DNA of 16,253 nucleotides, taken from Saprospiraceae bacterium. Its GTDB lineage: Bacteria; Bacteroidota; Bacteroidia; Chitinophagales; Saprospiraceae. Every line of letters begins with the position of its first letter. Position 1 is the stretch's first letter. The notes beneath the pieces are model-generated. The model worked only from the letters and a program-made list of their open reading frames with translations, did not search any database and had not been told where the DNA came from. Both the position numbers and the translations under genes were made by a program. The stretch covers positions 3,959 to 20,211 of the forward strand of contig JAHDHF010000038.1 in assembly GCA_020631455.1 (NCBI GenBank). Reading direction: 5' to 3'. Shown piece after piece: positions 1,938 to 16,253 of this stretch.

Positions 1938-2477
1938 ATGCCTATTGTAGATCTCTTATTGTGGATTGGAATGGCGGCTGGAGGATTGATGATTCTCTTG
2001 ATGCTCGCCTCAATATTGGGCGGCCTTGACTTAGGCGGCGGAGATGTCGATATAGATATCGAAGGCGACGCAGATCCTGGACTTGGAATCGTAAAGTCCG
2101 CGCTGACATTTGTCAGCGTTGCTTCATTTACTGCACGAGCATTCATGCTCAATTCGAGTATTTCTAACGTACTCATCATTGGTGCGAGTATAATCGCTGG
2201 CAGCCTTGCCGTCATGATTTTGACTGTTGTGCTCAAGCTTTTATTGAGCAATCAAGAAACTGGAAATTGGAATATGTCCGACGCCGTCGGCTTACCAGCC
2301 AATGTCTACATCCCAATTGCAAAAAATGGCTTCGGTCGTGTCATCGTAAAGATCAATGATGCAGATCGCGAAATCAATGCGCGTAGTGAAAGTGGCAAAG
2401 CACTTTCTACCAATACCCGTGTCCTCGTTATTGATGCCAACGAAGACCACCTTACTGTTGTACCTGTTAAAGATTAA
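1938..2477 (+). CDS. NfeD-like / YqiJ-like membrane protein (flotillin-associated, C-terminal OB-fold)
   Basis: It has N-terminal hydrophobic helices and a C-terminal beta-rich segment (GRVIVKINDADREINARSESGKALSTNTRVLVIDANEDHLTVVPV) typical of NfeD short forms. It ends 13 nt before a flotillin gene, matching the yqiJ-yqiK arrangement. An SD-like AAGGAGG lies 5 nt upstream of the ATG. Confidence 0.6.
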   Translation: MPIVDLLLWIGMAAGGLMILLMLASILGGLDLGGGDVDIDIEGDADPGLGIVKSALTFVSVASFTARAFMLNSSISNVLIIGASIIAGSLAVMILTVVLKLLLSNQETGNWNMSDAVGLPANVYIPIAKNGFGRVIVKINDADREINARSESGKALSTNTRVLVIDANEDHLTVVPVKD

Positions 2478-2490
2478 AAACCCTCATTCT

Positions 2491-4107
2491 ATGAAAAAAC
2501 AACTTTTAAAATATGCTCTCATAGCGATTGCTGCATTGTCTCCGACGATGCTCATGGCACAAGATCCACTCAGCGGGATCATGTCGATTGGATTGCCTGT
2601 GATTTTTGTGATTGTCTTGATCGTCATGATTTTGTTCTTCTTCGTCAGTCGATACAAACGCTGCCCATCTGACAAAATCCTTGTCATATATGGTAAGACT
2701 GGACAAGGCTCTGCAAAATGTATTCATGGTGGAGCCGCATTCATCATGCCGATTTTTCAAGACTATCAGTACTTGGATCTTCAGCCGATGTCAATAGATG
2801 TTAATCTAAGCGATGCACTCTCCAAGCAGAATATCCGTGTCTCTGTGCCATCACAGTTTACTGTTGCGATCAGCAACAAGCCGAACTTGATGAAAGCAGC
2901 TGCCGAGCGCCTCCTTGGCATGAAGCGTCCTGCAGTCGTCAGTCTCGCAGAAGATATCATCATGGGTCAGATGCGTCTCGTTATCGCCAATATGGACATC
3001 GAAGAGCTCAACACCGACCGTGACAAATTCGTCAGCTCTGTATTTGAGCATGTTGGAAACGAGCTGCACAAAGTCGGTCTCGATTTGATCAACGTCAACG
3101 TCCGCGATATCCATGATGAGTCAGGCTATATCCGCGCACTCGGACAAGAAGCTGCTGCCAAAGCAATCAACGAAGCGAAGGTCAAAGTAGCACTCGAAGA
3201 GCGTACTGGTGCTATCGGTCAAGCATCAGCTGCACGCGAGCGCCGTACAGAAGTCGCAGCTGCCAACTCACTCGCTGAGATCGGTGAGAAAAATGCCGAA
3301 GCAGATGCGATCAAGGGTAAAAACCTTGCTGACATCCAAGTCGCCGAATCTGATGCCGAGCGTCGTCGTCAAGTCGCAGCTGCCAACTCACTCGCAGAAG
3401 TCGGTGAAAAAAATGCCGAAGCAAGCGAGATTAAAGGAAAGAACCTTGCGAACATCGACATCGCTGAATCTGACGCAGAGCGTCGAATGAAAGTCGCCGA
3501 GTCAAATCGCAGCGCCGAAGTCGCTGAAAAGACGGCAAAAGCTGCTGCTGAAAAAGCAGCCTATCTCGCGCAAAAAGATGCCGAAGAAGCAAAAGGTCTC
3601 CGCGAACTCGCAGCACGCCGTGCAGACGAAGTCGTCCACTCAGAGATTGCCAAAGAAAAGGCGATCATAGATGCACAAGCAGAAGCAGAGCGCCAGCGAC
3701 TCGTCGCACAAGGAGAAGCCGATGCCGAGCTTGCTAAGTTCAAGGCACAGGCGGAAGGTATCCGCGAAGTCCTTGATGCACAGGCAGAAGGTTTCCTCAA
3801 CCTAGTCAAAGCATCGGGCGACAATCCTGAAGCTGCGATCGGCCTCTTGCTCGTCGATAAGATCCCTGAGCTCGCGAAGATTCAGGCTGACGCGATCAAG
3901 AACATCAAATTTGACAAAGTCACTGTCTTTGACGGCGGCAATGGCGACGGCGTCAGCAATATGCTCAATGGCGTTTTCAAGTCGGTTCCTGCGCTCGAGG
4001 ATTTCCTCAAGCAGAGCGGCATGGGCTTGCCAGAATTTTTGGCGAAGACGACGTCAAACAATGATGATAAAAAACTCCCGCCAGCTGAAGACCTGAAAGC
4101 CGAGTAA
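2491..4107 (+). CDS. Flotillin family protein (SPFH/band-7 domain, YqiK-like)
   Basis: An N-terminal TM helix is followed by an SPFH domain (KCIHGGAAFIMPIFQDYQYLDLQPMSIDVNLSDALSKQNIRVSV...) and a long Ala/Glu-rich coiled-coil flotillin region. The in-frame ATG at 2581 (MSIGLP...) is an alternative start. The ORF-track start at 2356 overlaps the upstream gene and is rejected. Confidence 0.85.
   Translation: MKKQLLKYALIAIAALSPTMLMAQDPLSGIMSIGLPVIFVIVLIVMILFFFVSRYKRCPSDKILVIYGKTGQGSAKCIHGGAAFIMPIFQDYQYLDLQPMSIDVNLSDALSKQNIRVSVPSQFTVAISNKPNLMKAAAERLLGMKRPAVVSLAEDIIMGQMRLVIANMDIEELNTDRDKFVSSVFEHVGNELHKVGLDLINVNVRDIHDESGYIRALGQEAAAKAINEAKVKVALEERTGAIGQASAARERRTEVAAANSLAEIGEKNAEADAIKGKNLADIQVAESDAERRRQVAAANSLAEVGEKNAEASEIKGKNLANIDIAESDAERRMKVAESNRSAEVAEKTAKAAAEKAAYLAQKDAEEAKGLRELAARRADEVVHSEIAKEKAIIDAQAEAERQRLVAQGEADAELAKFKAQAEGIREVLDAQAEGFLNLVKASGDNPEAAIGLLLVDKIPELAKIQADAIKNIKFDKVTVFDGGNGDGVSNMLNGVFKSVPALEDFLKQSGMGLPEFLAKTTSNNDDKKLPPAEDLKAE
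3241..3480 (+). repeat. In-frame tandem duplication (2 x 120 bp; a decayed third unit may follow at 3481-3540) inside the flotillin coiled-coil region
   Basis: Units 3241-3360 and 3361-3480 are about 80% identical at the nucleotide level. They encode RRTEVAAANSLAEIGEKNAEADAIKGKNLADIQVAESDAE and RRRQVAAANSLAEVGEKNAEASEIKGKNLANIDIAESDAE. Confidence 0.8.
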
Positions 4108-4144
4108 TAATTCATTCTGTAGCATTTTCCATCAACTTATTATG

Positions 4145-4290
4145 ATGGGCCATCCGCCATCTCGACTGCGTCGAGATGGCGGTCGCTATGTTACGCAGCT
4201 CGCTATTCGCTCGGCTGCTCCAGCAGAGCTGTCGCATCTGCCGCTTTGCGGCACTGCTGCACAGCGCTTGTCCGAGGCAGCTGTCTTTGG
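4145..4290 (+). repeat. Family-A intergenic repeat, copy A1
   Basis: It starts with ATGGGCCATCC, followed by a perfect 13-bp hairpin (CCGCCATCTCGAC-tgc-GTCGAGATGGCGG, 4154-4182). The conserved core then follows: GGTCGCTATGtTaCGcaGCTCGCTATTCGCTCGGC...GCAGCGCTTGTCC. The element is GC-rich, and a GC-rich tail continues to about 4420. Confidence 0.75.
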
Positions 4291-4464
4291 CGTAGGGATG
4301 GTAAGGGGCGCGCAATGAAATGAAGCGCTCGCAAGCGTAGCGATGTGATGAGCGAAAAGCGAAACCCTGAATCAGCCCGCCGCGACGATGTGCTTGCACA
4401 AGGAGCGGACGCCCCTACTCATTCGTTTGTATCATCAAAGCTGCTTGTATCTTTACCTGAAAGT

Positions 4465-6691: not shown

Positions 6692-6710
6692 TATTCTTGT
6701 GCTTTTCCTA

Positions 6711-6808
6711 GGCTGAGGGATAGAAGGCGTTGTTTGAACTCAGCGCGACCTTGGAGCGCTGAGAGAGTGCCGGATAGCCCGACCGCAGCTCTGCTGCGGG
6801 CAGCCCCA
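6711..6808 (+). repeat. Family-B intergenic repeat, copy B2 (complete)
   Basis: A 5' core GGCTGAGGGATAGaAGGCgtTG is shared with 16230-16253. A copy-specific 8-bp hairpin follows (CTCAGCGC-gaccttgga-GCGCTGAG, 6739-6763). The 3' module GGATAGCCCGACCGCAGCTCTGCTGCGGGCAGCCCCA is identical to 31-66. The element ends 22 nt before the helicase ATG. Confidence 0.8.
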
Positions 6809-6830
6809 AATCATCATGTACATTTGTGGT

Positions 6831-8180
6831 ATGAGCCAAGAGGAGGTGACGACATTTGAAGAACTCGGCATACCGCGCCACTATCGCGGTGTGCTTGATG
6901 AGCAAGAGATCACGACGGCGTCTCCGATACAAGCGCGCGCCATCAAGCCGATCAAAGCTGGGCAAGATGTGATCGGGATTGCGCCGACAGGTACAGGCAA
7001 GACGCTAGCATTTTTGCTGCCAGTGATGACGCTGCTGCAGCGCCCAGATGGCGACTGGCCTCGCGTGATCGTGATGTCGCCGACCAAGGAGCTTGCGCTG
7101 CAAGTCGCTCATGTAGCAGAAGGGTTGAGCCATGCTGCTGGGCTGCGAGTCGCTTGTTTACATGGTGGACGTGGCAAGAAAAAGCAAGAAGAACTGATCG
7201 CCGAAGGACTCGACCTGATCGTTTGCACACCAGGCCGCTTGAATGAATTGGCTTATGGTAATCAGCTTTCTTTGAAAAAAGTGAAGCATCTGATCCTTGA
7301 CGAAGCAGACAAAATGATGGACATGGGCTTTTTGCCACAGCTCCATCAGTTGCTTGATATACTGCCGCGTCGGCGACAGAATTTATTATTCTCGGCGACA
7401 TTTCCTGACAAAGTCAAAGTCTTGAGTGATGACTTTCTGTTGAGCCCGACTCGTATCGAAATCGCGCCCCAATCGACGCCTGTCGAAACGGTCAAGCAGC
7501 ATATTTTTTATGTGCCCAATGATCAGACAAAACTCAATCTGCTTATTCATCTTTTGCTCGACGAAGAAGCCGTTTATCGCGTTATTGTTTTTTGCAGAAG
7601 TAAATCTGATGTCACGCGCGTAGAAGCTGGTCTCAAAGCAGCCAAAGTCATGGGCAAGCGAGCAGTCTTGCACGCCAATAAAAATATGAACACACGCATT
7701 AATGCGATGCAAGCATTTCGCGATGGCGAGATTCGGATTTTAATAACAACTGATATCGCTGCGCGTGGCATTGATGTCAAGGACGTGAGCCACGTTATTA
7801 ACTATAATGTGCCGAAATTATCAGAAGAATATGTTCACCGCATCGGTCGCACAGGGCGCATGCATCGCGATGGTATCGCCTTGACATTTGTAGATCCGAG
7901 TGAGATTTATAATCTCAAGAAAATACAAAAACTCATCGGCATGAAAATCGACGAAGCATCAATTCCTGCTGAAGTCGAGATGCCAATGACGAGCAAAGAA
8001 GAATTGATCGAACAAGCGCGCGAAATTGATCAACAGCGACGAAAAGAAGATCCGAATTTCAAAGGCGCGTTTCATCAAAAAAAACATCCCAAGAAAAAGA
8101 AATTCGAAAAAGAAAAACGCAGAAGCAAACAGCCGCAACGCTTTATAAGTAACACAAGCAAAAAGAAAAAACGCAACTAA
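6831..8180 (+). CDS. DEAD-box ATP-dependent RNA helicase with a Lys-rich C-terminal tail
   Basis: The motifs TFEELGI...PIQ (Q motif), APTGTGKT (I), LILDEAD (II), SAT (III) and HRIGRTGR (VI) are present, plus a KKKxKKEKRR tail. ATG 6831 (MSQEEVTTFEELGI) is preferred over 6816. Confidence 0.9.
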   Translation: MSQEEVTTFEELGIPRHYRGVLDEQEITTASPIQARAIKPIKAGQDVIGIAPTGTGKTLAFLLPVMTLLQRPDGDWPRVIVMSPTKELALQVAHVAEGLSHAAGLRVACLHGGRGKKKQEELIAEGLDLIVCTPGRLNELAYGNQLSLKKVKHLILDEADKMMDMGFLPQLHQLLDILPRRRQNLLFSATFPDKVKVLSDDFLLSPTRIEIAPQSTPVETVKQHIFYVPNDQTKLNLLIHLLLDEEAVYRVIVFCRSKSDVTRVEAGLKAAKVMGKRAVLHANKNMNTRINAMQAFRDGEIRILITTDIAARGIDVKDVSHVINYNVPKLSEEYVHRIGRTGRMHRDGIALTFVDPSEIYNLKKIQKLIGMKIDEASIPAEVEMPMTSKEELIEQAREIDQQRRKEDPNFKGAFHQKKHPKKKKFEKEKRRSKQPQRFISNTSKKKKRN

Positions 8181-8217
8181 AAAAGCGGCTGCTTCGAATG
8201 AAGCAGCCGCTTTTTTT
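8181..8217. terminator. Bidirectional Rho-independent terminator between the convergent helicase and DUF1573 genes
   Basis: It reads AAAA-GCGGCTGCTTC-gaat-GAAGCAGCCGC-TTTTTTT. This is a perfect 11-bp GC-rich stem flanked by an A-tract and a T-tract, immediately after the helicase stop at 8180. Confidence 0.85.
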
Positions 8218-8237: not shown

Positions 8238-8789
8238 CTAGAATTTCAAAACAACCTCGCCATTCATTTTGAGTACGACAGGTTTGACATTTTCTTGCGT
8301 CGTGTAGACAGTGACCAGTTTCGTAAATGGACCAAAATCAGAAGCATCATACGTCGCGACAATTTCAGCAGTTTCGCCTGGCATGATCGGTGCCTCAGGG
8401 TAGACGATATCCGTACAACCACAGGAGCCTTTTGCCTTAGTGATGATGATCGGCTCTTCAGATGTATTCGTAAATGGGTACGCCACTTTCACAGGCTTAT
8501 TGTGATCGATTGCGCCGAGATTGACGACTTCTTTATCCCAGCTCCACACGTCGATGTATTCGATTTCTTCTTCCTCATCGAGTTGGGCGACCTCAGCGTC
8601 ATCGGCTTTTTCGGCTTCATCTTTAGGTTCGAGACTTTCGACATCAGCCTTCATCTTTTCAAGAAGAGCCTTGACGGTCGAAGCAGGAGTCTCAGCGCCT
8701 TTTGCCGTAAATTCAGACTCTGCTTTTTGAGCAGACAATCCAGCTACGAGTAAAAAACAAGCGACTAAAGAACAAATAGAACGTATCAT
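8238..8789 (-). CDS. DUF1573 domain-containing secreted protein
   Basis: A signal peptide (MIRSICSLVACFLLVAGLSAQ) is followed by an acidic linker. The C-terminal DUF1573 block carries the KGSCGCTDIVYPEAPIMPGETAEI motif. Confidence 0.7.
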   Translation of the reverse strand: MIRSICSLVACFLLVAGLSAQKAESEFTAKGAETPASTVKALLEKMKADVESLEPKDEAEKADDAEVAQLDEEEEIEYIDVWSWDKEVVNLGAIDHNKPVKVAYPFTNTSEEPIIITKAKGSCGCTDIVYPEAPIMPGETAEIVATYDASDFGPFTKLVTVYTTQENVKPVVLKMNGEVVLKF

Positions 8790-8914: not shown

Positions 8915-9080
8915 ATGGGCCATCCCTCCATTCAAGAAGCCTCTATCGAGGCTCTTTCATGTCGGGTCGCTATGCTCCGTGGCTCGCTATTCGCTCGGCC
9001 TCATCGCTGCATTCGCAGCTTTTGAGTCTAGCCTTTCGGCTACCACTTCGCAGCGCTTGTCCAGAGCAGCTTGTTTGATC
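8915..9080 (+). repeat. Family-A intergenic repeat, copy A2
   Basis: ATGGGCCATCC is followed by an imperfect copy-specific hairpin (8924-8966). The conserved core GGTCGCTATGCTCCGTGGCTCGCTATTCGCTCGGCCTCATCGCTGCATTCGCAGC...TAGCC-tttc-GGCTACCACTTCGCAGCGCTTGTCCAGAGCAGC then follows. Confidence 0.8.
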
Positions 9081-11812: not shown

Positions 11813-14023
11813 ATGATTCTTGCTCGACCATTTCGATCCATCATACTGTATAGTTTTCTTGTATGTTTATCAACAAATCTACTAGCGCAACGCCCAGCAG
11901 CAAATGATACGCGTCAGCTAGAATCTATCTCCAAAAAGTATTTCAACAATGCCGATTACGATAAAGCATTACCTGTTTTACTTCAAATCAGATCGATCAA
12001 AGGAAAAAGTAAATCCTTAGACTATAAAATCGGAGTTTGCTATTTCTATAAGCAAGAGTATATAAGCTCTTCGGAATACCTTGCATACGTCGCAGAACAA
12101 AAAGACCCACCTGATAGGACTTTTGACTATCTCGCTAAGATCTTACATCGCTCGCATCGATTTGAAGATGCAGCCAAGATGTACAAAGTCTACCTTGGCA
12201 AACTCAAGCTCAAAGACGAAGAGCGCATCTTCGTAAAAAACGACATTCGACGCTGTTTATCTGGAATAAAGTCTACCCTCAGCCCTGCTGATATCATTGC
12301 AGAAAATCTAGGAGACAATATCAATACAGCTGGAGACGAGTATCGCCCAGTCGAATCCAACAAACAAGAAACAATTCTTTACTTCACAGCTTTACGCAAT
12401 ACAAATACTGGTGGATTAAGTGCTGCTGGAAAAGTCGATGGCGTCAAACAGATGCGCTACAAAACTGATGTTTTTCAAACAACACTAAAGCGCGGTACAT
12501 GGTCAAAAGGTCAATCTTTAGATCGACGATACAATACTGGCTTTGACGAAGAGCTCCTTGCATTCTCAGAAGACGGTTCTCAAGCCTTTTTCTCACAATC
12601 TGCAAATAAAGAAGCTCCTGGCAAATCACTCAAAACAGCACTCTTTGACATGAGTGGTAGCGAAGAAACAAATGCTACGCTTCAACCGATGACGAGCCTC
12701 ATTGATGCTCCTGACACATGGCAAGGTGATTTCTTTGTTTTCAATGATACGACCTTTTTGTTTTCAAGCACGCGCCCAGGAGGGTTTGGCGGCAAAGATT
12801 TGTATGTAGTGACACGTAGTCCACGCACTGGCTATTGGTCCATGCCCCGCAATCTCGGAGCACAAATCAATACACCGTTTGATGAGACAGCTCCATTTCT
12901 AGCCCGTGACGGGCGCACCTTGTTTTTCAGCTCCAACAATACGCACAGTATTGGCGGCTTTGATATTTTCAAGGCAGTTTATGTTGATTCTTTACTGAAC
13001 TGGACGACACCGCAGAACATCGGACAACCGATCAACAGCGCATCAGATGACTCATATTATCGACTCGCCGACGACGGACTCAAAGCGTACTTCGCCAGCA
13101 ATCGTCACCAAGGCAATGGCGGCTGGGATATCTATCAAGGCTTCTTCAAAAAATATCAACGTGAGCACCTGTTTCCACGCAAGCCAGATGCGTTTGTCTA
13201 TGTCAATCAGCTAAACCGATACGAGATTGACGCACCAAAAGACGGCAGCATCACGCCATTCGAAGAAATCAAAACCTATATCATCGAGCCTGTTTCATTC
13301 AATGAGGACAACAATAGGCTCACACCAGCCATAAAAAAACAAGTCAACGACGTCATCAAAATGCTCATCGAGCATCCATATACTAATGTCGTCGTACACA
13401 GTCATACCGCCAATGACGCAGCCCGTCGATACAATCTCTACAGCAGCGTATTGAGAGCACGAGACATCGTTGATTACATGTCTCGCAACGGTGTCACCCG
13501 CGATCGAATCAGCATCATGGGCTTTGGAGCGACTTATCCGCTCGCTTGGGAAACCCAAGACAACGGGCAACCAAACGAGATCGCGCGCAAAGTCAATCGC
13601 AGAATCGAATTCCGTATTTACGGCACAGAAAACAGACCGCTCAAAGTCGAATACAAACGACCACTACTCAGCGGCAATATGGAAACATTTGATGCCAAGC
13701 CCTACTACGAAGCACTCGAAGGGCTCGCCTACCGCGTACAGATCACGTCAAGCAAGCAGATGTACAGCGGCGACGTCATCGAAATTTACAAAAACGTAGC
13801 CGTCGAAACCATCGCCCCAGATGACCAACTCATGCGGTACGCGATTGGACTCTTCTCTTCCTACTATACCGCCAAGTCGCTCAAAGACAAGCTCGCAGCA
13901 GATGGATTCGAAGACGCATTTATCGTCCCGTACATCAATGGTCGCCGCACCACACTCGAAGAAGCCCGAGAGTACACAGGTCTATATCCAGACCTTAACG
14001 CCTTCATCCGAGCATCCGAATAA
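11813..14023 (+). CDS. Multidomain envelope protein with a signal peptide, TPR region, TolB-like beta-propeller repeats, OmpA-like domain and a C-terminal SPOR-like domain
   Basis: The signal peptide is MILARPFRSIILYSFLVCLSTNLLAQ. TolB/WD40-like repeats are present (DEYRPVESNKQETILYFTA, FDETAPFLARDGRTLFFSSN, SDDSYYRLADDGLKAYFASNR). The OmpA C-like motif is NLYSSVLRARDIVDYM...NRRIEFRIY. The SPOR-like tail is YRVQITSSKQMYSGDV...YAIGLFSSYYTAKSLKDKLAADGFEDAFIV. Confidence 0.75.
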   Translation: MILARPFRSIILYSFLVCLSTNLLAQRPAANDTRQLESISKKYFNNADYDKALPVLLQIRSIKGKSKSLDYKIGVCYFYKQEYISSSEYLAYVAEQKDPPDRTFDYLAKILHRSHRFEDAAKMYKVYLGKLKLKDEERIFVKNDIRRCLSGIKSTLSPADIIAENLGDNINTAGDEYRPVESNKQETILYFTALRNTNTGGLSAAGKVDGVKQMRYKTDVFQTTLKRGTWSKGQSLDRRYNTGFDEELLAFSEDGSQAFFSQSANKEAPGKSLKTALFDMSGSEETNATLQPMTSLIDAPDTWQGDFFVFNDTTFLFSSTRPGGFGGKDLYVVTRSPRTGYWSMPRNLGAQINTPFDETAPFLARDGRTLFFSSNNTHSIGGFDIFKAVYVDSLLNWTTPQNIGQPINSASDDSYYRLADDGLKAYFASNRHQGNGGWDIYQGFFKKYQREHLFPRKPDAFVYVNQLNRYEIDAPKDGSITPFEEIKTYIIEPVSFNEDNNRLTPAIKKQVNDVIKMLIEHPYTNVVVHSHTANDAARRYNLYSSVLRARDIVDYMSRNGVTRDRISIMGFGATYPLAWETQDNGQPNEIARKVNRRIEFRIYGTENRPLKVEYKRPLLSGNMETFDAKPYYEALEGLAYRVQITSSKQMYSGDVIEIYKNVAVETIAPDDQLMRYAIGLFSSYYTAKSLKDKLAADGFEDAFIVPYINGRRTTLEEAREYTGLYPDLNAFIRASE

Positions 14024-14036
14024 TGACGGAATAATA

Positions 14037-14190
14037 ATGGGCCATCCCTTCATTTTCTAGTAAATATTCACTAGAAAATGAAGGGTCGCTATGCTCCGTG
14101 GCTCGCTGATCGCTCGGCCTCATCGCTGCATTCGCAGCATCTGAGTCTAGCCGAGCGGCTACCACTGCGCAGCGCTTGTCCACGCTGCTA
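14037..14190 (+). repeat. Family-A intergenic repeat, copy A3
   Basis: ATGGGCCATCC is followed by a perfect 16-bp copy-specific hairpin (CCCTTCATTTTCTAGT-aaatattc-ACTAGAAAATGAAGGG, 14046-14085). The conserved core GGTCGCTATGCTCCGTGGCTCGCTgATCGCTCGGCCTCATCGCTGCATTCGCAGC...TAGCC-gagc-GGCTACCACTGCGCAGCGCTTGTCC then follows. Confidence 0.8.
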
Positions 14191-14227
14191 CAATTCAATG
14201 CATCTTTGCAGTATAAAGAAAAACCCC

Positions 14228-15067
14228 ATGATCGAAATAGGTCAATACAACAGACTCGAAATCCTCCGCGAAACAAGCGTCGGGCTTTACCTCGGCGACG
14301 AAGAAGGCGAAGACGTTTTGCTGCCAAATAAATACTGCCCTGATCATTTTGAGATCGGAGATATGATTACCGTCTTTGTATACAGAGATTATGCAGAGCG
14401 CAAAATCGCAACAGACTTAATTCCGCATATTTATTTACATCAATTTGCATTATTAGAATGTGTCGATGTGACCGATATCGGTGCATTTATGGAATGGGGA
14501 TTACAAAAGCATCTCATGGTGCCATTCAAGGAGCAGCGACAAGAGATGACCGCTGGTCGCTGGTATGTTGTCTACCTCGATCTCGACACCGAGACTGACC
14601 GACTCTACGGCAGCAACAGATTTGAAAAATGGATCAACAACGAAACACTTACTGTACAAGAAAAAGACGAAGTCGAAGTGTTAATTTATAGAAAGACGCA
14701 GCTCGGATATCTCGCTATCATCAATAATAAACACAAAGGACTCCTCTACAAAAATGAAGTCTTTAAAGAATTAAGAATCGGCGAAAAACGAACAGCATTT
14801 ATTAAAAAAATACGCGAAGAAAATAAAATTGACCTCTCATTGCAGCCGATCGGCTACAAGCAATTTAATAGTAAAAATGCCGAGCTCATCTACAAACGCA
14901 TTGAGCAAGCTGGAGGCATGCTCTACATGACAGACAAGAGCGACCCCGATGATATTTATGACGAATTTGCTATTAGCAAAAAAGCATTTAAAAAAGCTGT
15001 CGGCGAGCTTTACAAAAATCGAAAAATAACAATTGAGAAAAAAGGGCTTCGTCTTGTCAAAGAATAA
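14228..15067 (+). CDS. CvfB/YitL-family S1-like RNA-binding protein
   Basis: MIEIGQYNRLEILRETSVGLYLGDEEGEDVLLPNKYCP and repeated S1-like segments fit the CvfB family. The ORF-track start at 14078 is an ATG inside repeat A3, so ATG 14228 is preferred. Confidence 0.75.
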   Translation: MIEIGQYNRLEILRETSVGLYLGDEEGEDVLLPNKYCPDHFEIGDMITVFVYRDYAERKIATDLIPHIYLHQFALLECVDVTDIGAFMEWGLQKHLMVPFKEQRQEMTAGRWYVVYLDLDTETDRLYGSNRFEKWINNETLTVQEKDEVEVLIYRKTQLGYLAIINNKHKGLLYKNEVFKELRIGEKRTAFIKKIREENKIDLSLQPIGYKQFNSKNAELIYKRIEQAGGMLYMTDKSDPDDIYDEFAISKKAFKKAVGELYKNRKITIEKKGLRLVKE

Positions 15068-16229: not shown

Positions 16230-16253
16230 GGCTGAGGGATAGTAGGCAGTGCT
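16230..16253 (+). repeat. Family-B intergenic repeat, copy B3 (5' part; truncated by the window end)
   Basis: GGCTGAGGGATAGtAGGCaGTGct matches the 5' core of B2 at 6711-6734. Confidence 0.6.

Follow-up and report, generated by a model that had tools for sequence, protein, structure and literature searches.

Bacterial miniature inverted-repeat transposable elements (MITEs) with structured transcripts include Correia/NEMIS from Neisseria, bcr1 from the Bacillus cereus group and ERIC/IRU from enterobacteria, which occur in hundreds of intergenic copies in both orientations, have a predicted stable single-strand fold and are often co-transcribed with their neighbours. Together with REP/BIME or mosaic intergenic elements they are the closest known counterparts of the repeat family described here, of which three copies (A1, A2 and A3) had been proposed in an initial annotation of a 16,253-nt stretch of contig JAHDHF010000038.1 from a Saprospiraceae bacterium (hereafter the window). 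The Saprospiraceae are common marine and wastewater Bacteroidota. Like Correia, bcr1 and ERIC, the repeat is non-coding and 100–250 bp long, with terminal inverted repeats and a target-site duplication. It differs from these elements in that conservation across genera is higher in the five-helix core than in the terminal repeats, that the fold branches and is not one long hairpin formed from the ends, that copies alternate in strand and that orthologous copies swap internal modules.

With REP, BIME and REPIN elements our repeat shares its GC-rich, structured and intergenic nature, a very high density, inverted doublets and long persistence in a lineage, and BIME clusters also alternate in orientation, but within one cluster and not across genes. 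A REP is a single, imperfectly palindromic hairpin of 20–40 nt that begins with a conserved GTAG-like tetranucleotide, is associated with a RAYT gene and makes no target duplication, whereas the Saprospiraceae element has 8-bp duplications and terminal inverted repeats. The intergenic mosaic elements NIME (Neisseria), RIME (rhizobia) and BOX (pneumococcus) are similarly modular, with modules varying in number and sequence between copies and with evident recombination between copies, but there is no sequence relationship, and the Saprospiraceae modules are helices of one fold and not concatenated boxes. As in an integron attC site, one hairpin (P2) is conserved only at its base while its centre is copy-specific and almost perfectly palindromic; unlike attC, the repeat lacks R″/R′ core sites (RYYYAAC/GTTRRRY) as well as an integrase and a cassette array, and P2 is one arm of a larger fold. 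The IS200/IS605 PATEs and the omega-RNA scaffolds of TnpB/IscB are also multi-copy, structured, non-coding and derived from transposon ends. Both lack inverted repeats and target duplications, and PATEs, which carry subterminal hairpins, insert 3′ of a fixed tetra- or pentanucleotide. In contrast to these families our repeat has neither an Rfam match nor an adjacent tnpA or tnpB. It is an ordinary transposon-derived repeat on one side and unusual on the other, namely in its branched conserved core, module exchange, hairpin flipping and alternating orientation.

Results and Discussion

A repeat family of Saprospiraceae and Chitinophagales

Our analysis indicates that A1–A3 are high-copy, non-coding interspersed repeats of Saprospiraceae and Chitinophagales which probably began as a MITE, that is a non-autonomous DNA transposon. 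All three copies are present as annotated and are mutually homologous (A1 at 4145–4276, A2 at 8915–9065 and A3 at 14037–14184, all on the + strand). They start with the same ATGGGCCATCC, as had been described, and their conserved core is real as well, with 105 nt common to A2 and A3 at 90% identity and a 35-nt block found in all three at 83–89%. Their GC-richness was also seen again (0.60 at 4201–4400 compared to ~0.45 around it). Besides the alignment of A1 with A2 and A3, the assignment is supported by the covariance model R1, which was built from 17 copies of other genomes, leaving out those of the window and of Phaeodactylibacter luteus. It scored the three copies at 70–77 bits with E-values of ~1e-15 to 1e-17 (A1 70.4 bits, E 1.4e-15; A2 77.1 bits; A3 75.8 bits), and a model R2 gave 86.4, 89.1 and 86.8 bits, respectively. 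The similarity of A1–A3 is far beyond chance.

Using GGTCGCTATGNTNCGNNGCTCGCT as query we scanned one genome per species from 185,579 species. Among the matches listed were at least 43 core loci, every one of them from Saprospiraceae or Chitinophagales, with at least 17 loci in P. luteus, at least about 15 in the metagenome-assembled genome (MAG) SLDF01 and others in Saprospira grandis and several further genomes. In 325 kb of fetched loci the covariance model found 70 copies (69–70 depending on the run). The repeat is thus multi-copy beyond the window, with dozens of copies spread over many genera. No viral contig or phage record matched it, and a metagenome scan with the 5′ box of the window type returned chance matches only.

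A hit to a known Rfam family had been named as the result that would remove the novelty of the repeat; Rfam gave 0 matches at the gathering threshold across the window, and permissive searches of Rfam 15 stayed at chance level (E ≤ 10 on A1, E ≤ 1 on five loci with 12 copies). As we also found no description of the motifs or of Saprospiraceae repeats or MITEs in the published full-text literature, the family is apparently undescribed. We agree with the initial annotation that it is not a CRISPR array, attC site, tRNA or canonical terminator. ARAGORN detected 0 tRNA/tmRNA genes in the window, and at A1 there is no sigma-70-type promoter and no intrinsic terminator. An integron attC site was rejected, as the base of P2 reads CCC/GGG or CCnnCAT/ATGnnGG and not RYYYAAC/GTTRRRY, and as the copies sit between housekeeping genes with alternating strands. 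Protein-coding function was rejected too: on either strand there are open reading frames (ORFs) that extend into A1 and A3, but their frames are not conserved between copies, the differences in hairpin length are not multiples of three and no conserved ORF exists. On the minus strand A1 and A3 are each traversed by an ORF (4112–4399, 95 codons, and 14004–14327, 107 codons); both are side effects of the GC-rich repeat and likely to be mistaken for genes.

A covarying five-helix fold

Alignment of the copies by their invariant blocks exposed long-range complementarity, giving a fold with five helices and two three-way junctions on the + strand. Helix P1 closes the element and is formed by two hexamers, one behind the 5′ TGG and the other behind CAGCGC; it covaries across the 70 copies (GCATCA/TGATGC, GGCCTA/TAGTCC, GCGTGA/TCACGC, GAACTA/TAGTTC). 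In A1 its 5′ strand GGCCAT (4148–4153, +) pairs with TTGTCC (4268–4273, +) around a C·U mismatch. The hairpin P2 is free in sequence and length, ranging from 7 to ~80 nt across the family. What had been said about this hairpin in the window copies holds: in A1 (4154–4182, +) it is a perfect 13-bp stem with a 3-nt loop, whose arms 4154–4166 and 4170–4182 were found 100% complementary over 13 nt in an inverted-repeat search, in A2 it is imperfect and in A3 it has 20-nt arms that are 95% complementary. The long-range helix P3 (GC..TGN/N′CA..GC and CGNNG/CNNC) encloses the invariant unpaired block GCTCGCTnTTCGCTCGG together with the hairpins P4 and P5, and the invariant junction blocks are GGTCGCTAYG, GCTCGCTnTTCGCTCGG, GTCTGGC and CAGCGCT. 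The conserved core of A1 (4183–4267, +) accordingly contains J2/3 (TCGCTA), P3, P4, P5 and CAGCGC, with blocks invariant across genera; its unpaired block is GCTCGCTATTCGCTCGG (4198–4214, +).

In the 70-copy alignment 89.2% of the paired cells are complementary compared to 36–46% with the partners slid, both sides change at 30 of the 33 pairs, and 401 compensatory cells stand against ~55 in the slid controls. None of 500 shuffles reached the observed pairing values. As this alignment was fitted to the covariance model, P3 was rechecked on a plain MAFFT alignment, where one of its pairs is CG in 23, UA in 15 and AU in 2 sequences with 0 mismatches in 40. A covariance-model check, as had been proposed at the start, revealed structural covariation. 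The particular example offered for it, TAGCC-tttc-GGCTA against TAGCC-gagc-GGCTA, turned out to differ in the loop only. A true compensatory change is ATG[T]T...C[A]CAG in A1 versus ATG[C]T...C[G]CAG in A2 and A3, and further compensatory pairs are CGCAG/CTGC versus CGTGG/CCAC and GCCGC/GCGGC versus TAGCC/GGCTA.

One pair of P4 is G·U in 68 of the 70 copies, and overall G·U exceeds A·C by 121 to 30, from which it follows that the folding molecule is a single-stranded nucleic acid and represents one strand only. Two other approaches were given up. Minimum-free-energy folds of the single sequences A1–A3 were uninformative, since they match neither one another nor the comparative fold. The asymmetry of UNCG tetraloops was considered as a test for RNA versus DNA, but P3 contains a conserved CTNCGG that confounds it. 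If this description holds, the repeat, which is absent from Rfam, is a good candidate for a new class of structured nucleic acid.

Two variants of the fold were observed in other genomes. A P. luteus subfamily (L003 4376–4637 on the minus strand, L042 5921–6216, L006 754–1033 and L007 7165–7426) carries ~160 nt extra at P5, bounded by AGAGCTTTTTGGGG and CCCCAAAAAGCTCT; this segment is either an expanded P5 hairpin or a nested insertion, and the variant was rejected as an autonomous element. In low-GC MAGs (L041 6264–6411, L020 1146–1345, L010 6043–6233 and L002 4115–4289) P2 resembles a bidirectional intrinsic terminator consisting of an A-run, a GC stem and a T-run, and in L041 nothing but the element separates two convergent genes. 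It is possible that the variable hairpin has been recruited for termination.

Terminal inverted repeats and target duplications

Beyond P1, homology continues on both sides in P. luteus and in the SLDF01 MAG. These extensions are imperfect terminal inverted repeats of ~21 bp (GGGYGYAWWY..A.WTGTCGC), which are homologous between the two lineages (GGGTGTATTTCATTTTGTCGC versus the reverse complement GGGTGCATTTCAAAATGTCG in SLDF01, GGGCGCAAACCAGATTGTCGC versus GGGCGTAAACTAAAATGTCGC in P. luteus; the end sequences of these genomes include GGGCGCAAACCAGATTGTCGC and GGGTGYATTTCA). Complete copies in the relatives have a length of 173–253 bp with a core of 100–150 nt. For 13 copies both ends could be located, and directly outside the inverted repeats we found 8-bp direct repeats matching at 8/8 positions in three copies (CACTATAT, CCGATTGA and AAACGATG), at 7/8 in two further copies and at 6/8 in three further ones, while ~2/8 is expected by chance.

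The relatives therefore show the features of a MITE, being non-coding and shorter than 300 bp, with terminal inverted repeats, a duplication of fixed length and many dispersed copies, and the combination of 8-bp duplications and terminal inverted repeats argues for insertion by a DDE-type transposase. The view that the repeat is an interspersed, structured and non-coding element of mobile-element type has thus been borne out, while the class suggested for it, REP/BIME-like or IS200/IS605-derived (PATE-like), is contradicted by these ends.

In the model that we propose, a complete copy would comprise ~175–250 bp with inverted repeats of ~21 bp around the core, and its insertion, by a DDE-type transposase presumably supplied in trans, would duplicate 8 bp of the target. 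After insertion the ends would decay and the core would persist. The window copies may be regarded as old, immobile relics, since they are without recognisable ends. Two young copies with perfect duplications (L029 and L043) have inserted in inverted orientation at an older copy, either beside its 3′ end or within it, and A1 shows the same tail-to-tail geometry with its neighbour at 4286–4416. For a subfamily in the SLDF01 MAG, the core columns are almost all conserved in 80% or more of its members, and the variation falls on the terminal repeats and P2.

Further copies in the window and the relation of families A and B

The three copies annotated in the window are real, but they are not the only ones, as further copies are found at 4286–4416, 6708–6808, 1–69 and from 16230 to the end, giving seven if the partial ones at both ends are included. 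The GC-rich tail after A1 had been noted for its resemblance to a second family, B. This resemblance holds, but the tail is not part of A1: it is a separate, inverted and diverged B-like copy at 4286–4416 on the minus strand (R1 32.5 bits, E 1.5e-6; R2 43.7 bits, E 2e-7), reading 5′ GGGGCGTCC ... CCCTACGCC 3′ on that strand and forming a tail-to-tail pair with A1. The family-B copy at 6708–6808 (minus strand; R1 with filters off 21.5 bits, E 6e-4) is a short variant of the repeat with the B-type signature GGGGCTGCCC..GGTCGGGCTAT..ATCCCTCAGCC. Two more minus-strand copies of family B are cut by the window borders, one at 1–69, where 29–69 is 95% identical to 6771–6811, and the 3′ end of one at 16230–16253, where 16230–16247 is 94% identical to 6711–6728.

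The initial annotation had also suspected that A and B are modules of one composite element. They are indeed related, although in a different way. In Saprospira plasmids the B-type ends GGGGCTGCCCC..GGGTCGGGCTGT .. CCATCCCTCAGCC enclose the exact central block of A-type copies, and at one orthologous site with identical flanks the copy is of B-type in strain CCB-QB6 (L064 42840–42961) and of A-type in Lewin (L065 37186–37313), which is a replacement of the whole element. Because of this shared central block and the A/B swap, A and B belong to a single family, as variants that can replace one another. Some Saprospira B-type copies (L064 2345–, 6315– and 11249+, in the 3′ flanks) share an extra 3′ hairpin module, ACTGTGGGTTaAAACCCACAGCAA, which suggests that further subfamily-specific modules exist.

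Module exchange and hairpin flips

Three syntenic Saprospira plasmids, L064 (CCB-QB6, NZ_CP116809.1), L065 and L066, allowed a comparison of orthologous copies. They contain 20, 21 and 22 copies per 50 kb, corresponding to about one copy per 2.5 kb, with positions and strands common to all three. The copies fill most intergenic gaps above 100 nt, including those inside the pur and paa operons, where five lie in gene orientation and four opposite to it. Gene-oriented plasmid copies begin 1–7 nt past the upstream stop codon.

At several orthologous sites the 25-nt flanks have 0 variable columns, whereas the element has 33–46 in ~120. The differences are replacements of whole modules in which the helices remain paired. 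In addition, 10 orthologous hairpins from 7 loci, e.g., at L064 16786–16905, 18615–18735 and 41609–41736, showed loop flips with an identical stem and a reverse-complemented loop (AAA to TTT; TGCTGCGCA to TGCGCAGCA), which indicates strand-switch inversion at DNA hairpins. We read these mosaics as the result of frequent ectopic gene conversion between copies together with such flips. In our model, copies would thus swap modules by ectopic gene conversion and their hairpin loops would flip by strand switching, and exchange and flips together would explain why P2 looks like a hypervariable cassette. In A2 and A3 the core is 90% identical while the distal part of P2 is unrelated, and long perfect P2 hairpins occur in copies with decayed ends. 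An origin of the P2 arms from nearby host DNA was rejected, as the longest words shared within 8 kb (8–12 nt) are at chance level.

Alternating strand of neighbouring copies

Neighbouring copies lie mostly on opposite strands. In the CCB-QB6 plasmid (L064 1954–47463) this applies to 18/19 neighbours (P ~4e-5 at 50:50) and in its sister plasmids L065 and L066 to 19/20 and 21/21, the three syntenic plasmids counting as one evolutionary sample. Unrelated loci of other genomes (among L004–L043) gave 18/22 (P ~0.002) and the window 4/6. The alternation is independent of gene direction. As any single insertion into an alternating array makes one violation, random insertion cannot build such a pattern. 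Neighbouring copies are also no more alike than random pairs (p 0.08–0.35), so that neither recent local duplication nor selection for mutual complementarity receives support. The alternation might result from local inverted hops that spread the repeat outwards, from the removal of closely spaced direct repeats in a recombination-active family, from in-place inversion or from a functional requirement.

Evaluation of the MITE origin and of its alternatives

Several points weigh against the origin of A1–A3 as a MITE. No terminal inverted repeats or target duplications can be recognised at the window copies, whose ends are undefined, and their putative MITE origin rests on homology to complete copies in other genera. 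No transposase or autonomous partner was found near the copies in the 43 fetched loci; among these loci there is no inverted-repeat pair flanking an ORF and no protein gene that recurs beside the copies, and the RAYT or IS200-like tnpA gene which the initial annotation had proposed to look for is absent from the surroundings of the ~70 copies. The alternating strand is not predicted by simple random insertion. Furthermore, the core is better conserved across genera than the ends, which is the opposite of an ordinary MITE and points to a function.

As to this function, it is possible, although we put it forward only tentatively, that the compact fold is selected in RNA on co-transcription, so that insertions between genes or inside operons are tolerated or even useful. 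Such selection could act for example by avoiding polarity or by protecting transcript ends. The strand-specific G·U pairs fit poorly with an RNA role in transcripts of the host, since operon copies lie both ways. Alternatively, the fold could be kept as a protein-binding platform, as a structure for propagation or in a host-level organising role, but strand-specific G·U pairs in operon copies of either orientation do not sit well with any of these possibilities either.

A stronger idea, which we consider unlikely, is that the family is more than decaying transposon remains, namely a lineage-wide system in which a folded element stands in almost every intergenic gap, neighbours are held opposite and copies are continually re-templated from one another. 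If this were true, inverted elements flanking the genes would direct RNA processing or stability, or the elements would serve as oriented sites for a DNA-structuring or recombination machinery, and a transposon would carry, in the five-helix core, a new class of functional nucleic-acid structure. Slightly less likely still is that the copies are, more than a selfish relic, a host system for genome organisation or RNA processing. Alternating sense and antisense copies could then form long-range duplexes in polycistronic RNA, e.g., as RNase III sites, or a protein for DNA structuring or recombination could bind to the copies as oriented sites. The opposite strands of neighbours (18/19 in the plasmid, 18/22 in other genomes, 4/6 in the window), the position and strand conserved among the three plasmids, the core kept while the ends decay and the copies in nearly every intergenic region above 100 nt would all agree with this, but neighbours resemble each other no more than random pairs do and are therefore no more complementary either, we identified no protein associated with the copies and the three plasmids are a single evolutionary sample.

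It is improbable that the copies are independent small RNA genes, or that they act in cis as a leader or riboswitch, with each copy having its own promoter and the folded RNA being the product, even if the covarying multi-helix fold, the invariant junction nucleotides and the strand-specific G·U pairs would suit such a role and an A/T-rich run ending in TTTG, loosely like the Bacteroidetes −7 box, directly precedes most copies. The match to TAnnTTTG is imperfect (judged by eye), '+' copies start 1–7 nt after the upstream stop codon, leaving no room for a promoter, and neither a sigma-70-like promoter nor a terminator is seen at A1. No Rfam family matches, and terminal inverted repeats and target duplications are marks of transposition. 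The genes downstream are unrelated (GNAT, CinA, CvfB, pur, paa) and operon copies occur in both orientations, on which grounds a riboswitch or leader, expected at a constant position and orientation ahead of functionally related genes, was rejected; the 5′ leader role and the co-orientation that had been proposed for the family do not agree with annotated operons, which hold both orientations about equally.

A REP/BIME element mobilised by a RAYT, or an IS200/IS605 PATE, with a single-stranded DNA fold recognised by a Y1 (HUH) transposase, appears very improbable to us. It would account for the strand-specific fold, the REPIN-like tail-to-tail doublets (window 4145/4286, L029 and L043), the very high intergenic density and the loop flips, which show that DNA hairpins form in vivo. 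However, 8-bp duplications and terminal inverted repeats are foreign to both families, the copies share neither a GTAG-type tetranucleotide at the 5′ end nor a tetranucleotide at the target, and in the vicinity of the ~70 copies there is no gene for RAYT or TnpA. REP/BIME was thus rejected for the five-helix fold of 100–150 nt, which is far more complex than a REP hairpin, for the 8-bp duplications and for the lack of a recurrent neighbour gene, and the PATE for its inverted repeats and duplications and for 5′ flanks that share only A/T richness and no fixed target word. Finally, a local duplication confined to the window, where only three A-type copies are visible, has practically no chance of being correct, being already refuted by dozens of copies in many genera.

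Surroundings of the copies in the window

The genes flanking the window copies are ordinary housekeeping genes coding for Band_7, GNAT, YceG, DEAD-box helicase, DUF1573 (minus strand), CinA, E2 acyltransferase, PD40/OmpA and CvfB proteins. The copies had been described as co-oriented with all flanking genes, which fails at the DUF1573 gene upstream of A2 (8238–8789), as it lies on the minus strand. Empty sites were sought in close relatives of the window genome, but its lineage is isolated and the nearest other CvfB relative is only 67% identical.

Two further features of the window were observed. The Band_7/SPFH gene (2356–4107) contains a 120-nt tandem duplication at 3237–3476 with 80% identity, which gives a repeated Ala/Glu-rich, coiled-coil-like protein segment. 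At 8179–8216, between the convergent DEAD-box helicase and DUF1573 genes, a perfect 17-bp inverted repeat (AAAAAAGCGGCTGCTTC / GAAGCAGCCGCTTTTTT) forms a textbook bidirectional terminator, which has no relation to the repeat family.

Conclusion

If our description holds, Saprospiraceae carry an undescribed repeat that fills most of their intergenic gaps with about one copy per 2.5 kb. Two of its dynamics can be measured straight from genomes, namely the swapping of modules with the flipping of hairpins and the near-perfect strand alternation. On the practical side, the elements will mislead gene callers, as with the spurious ORFs 4112–4399 and 14004–14327 on the minus strand, as well as assembly and the prediction of small RNAs. 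The family would offer a tractable case for how transposon relics become fixed genome furniture and for what constrains the orientation of repeats in bacterial chromosomes.

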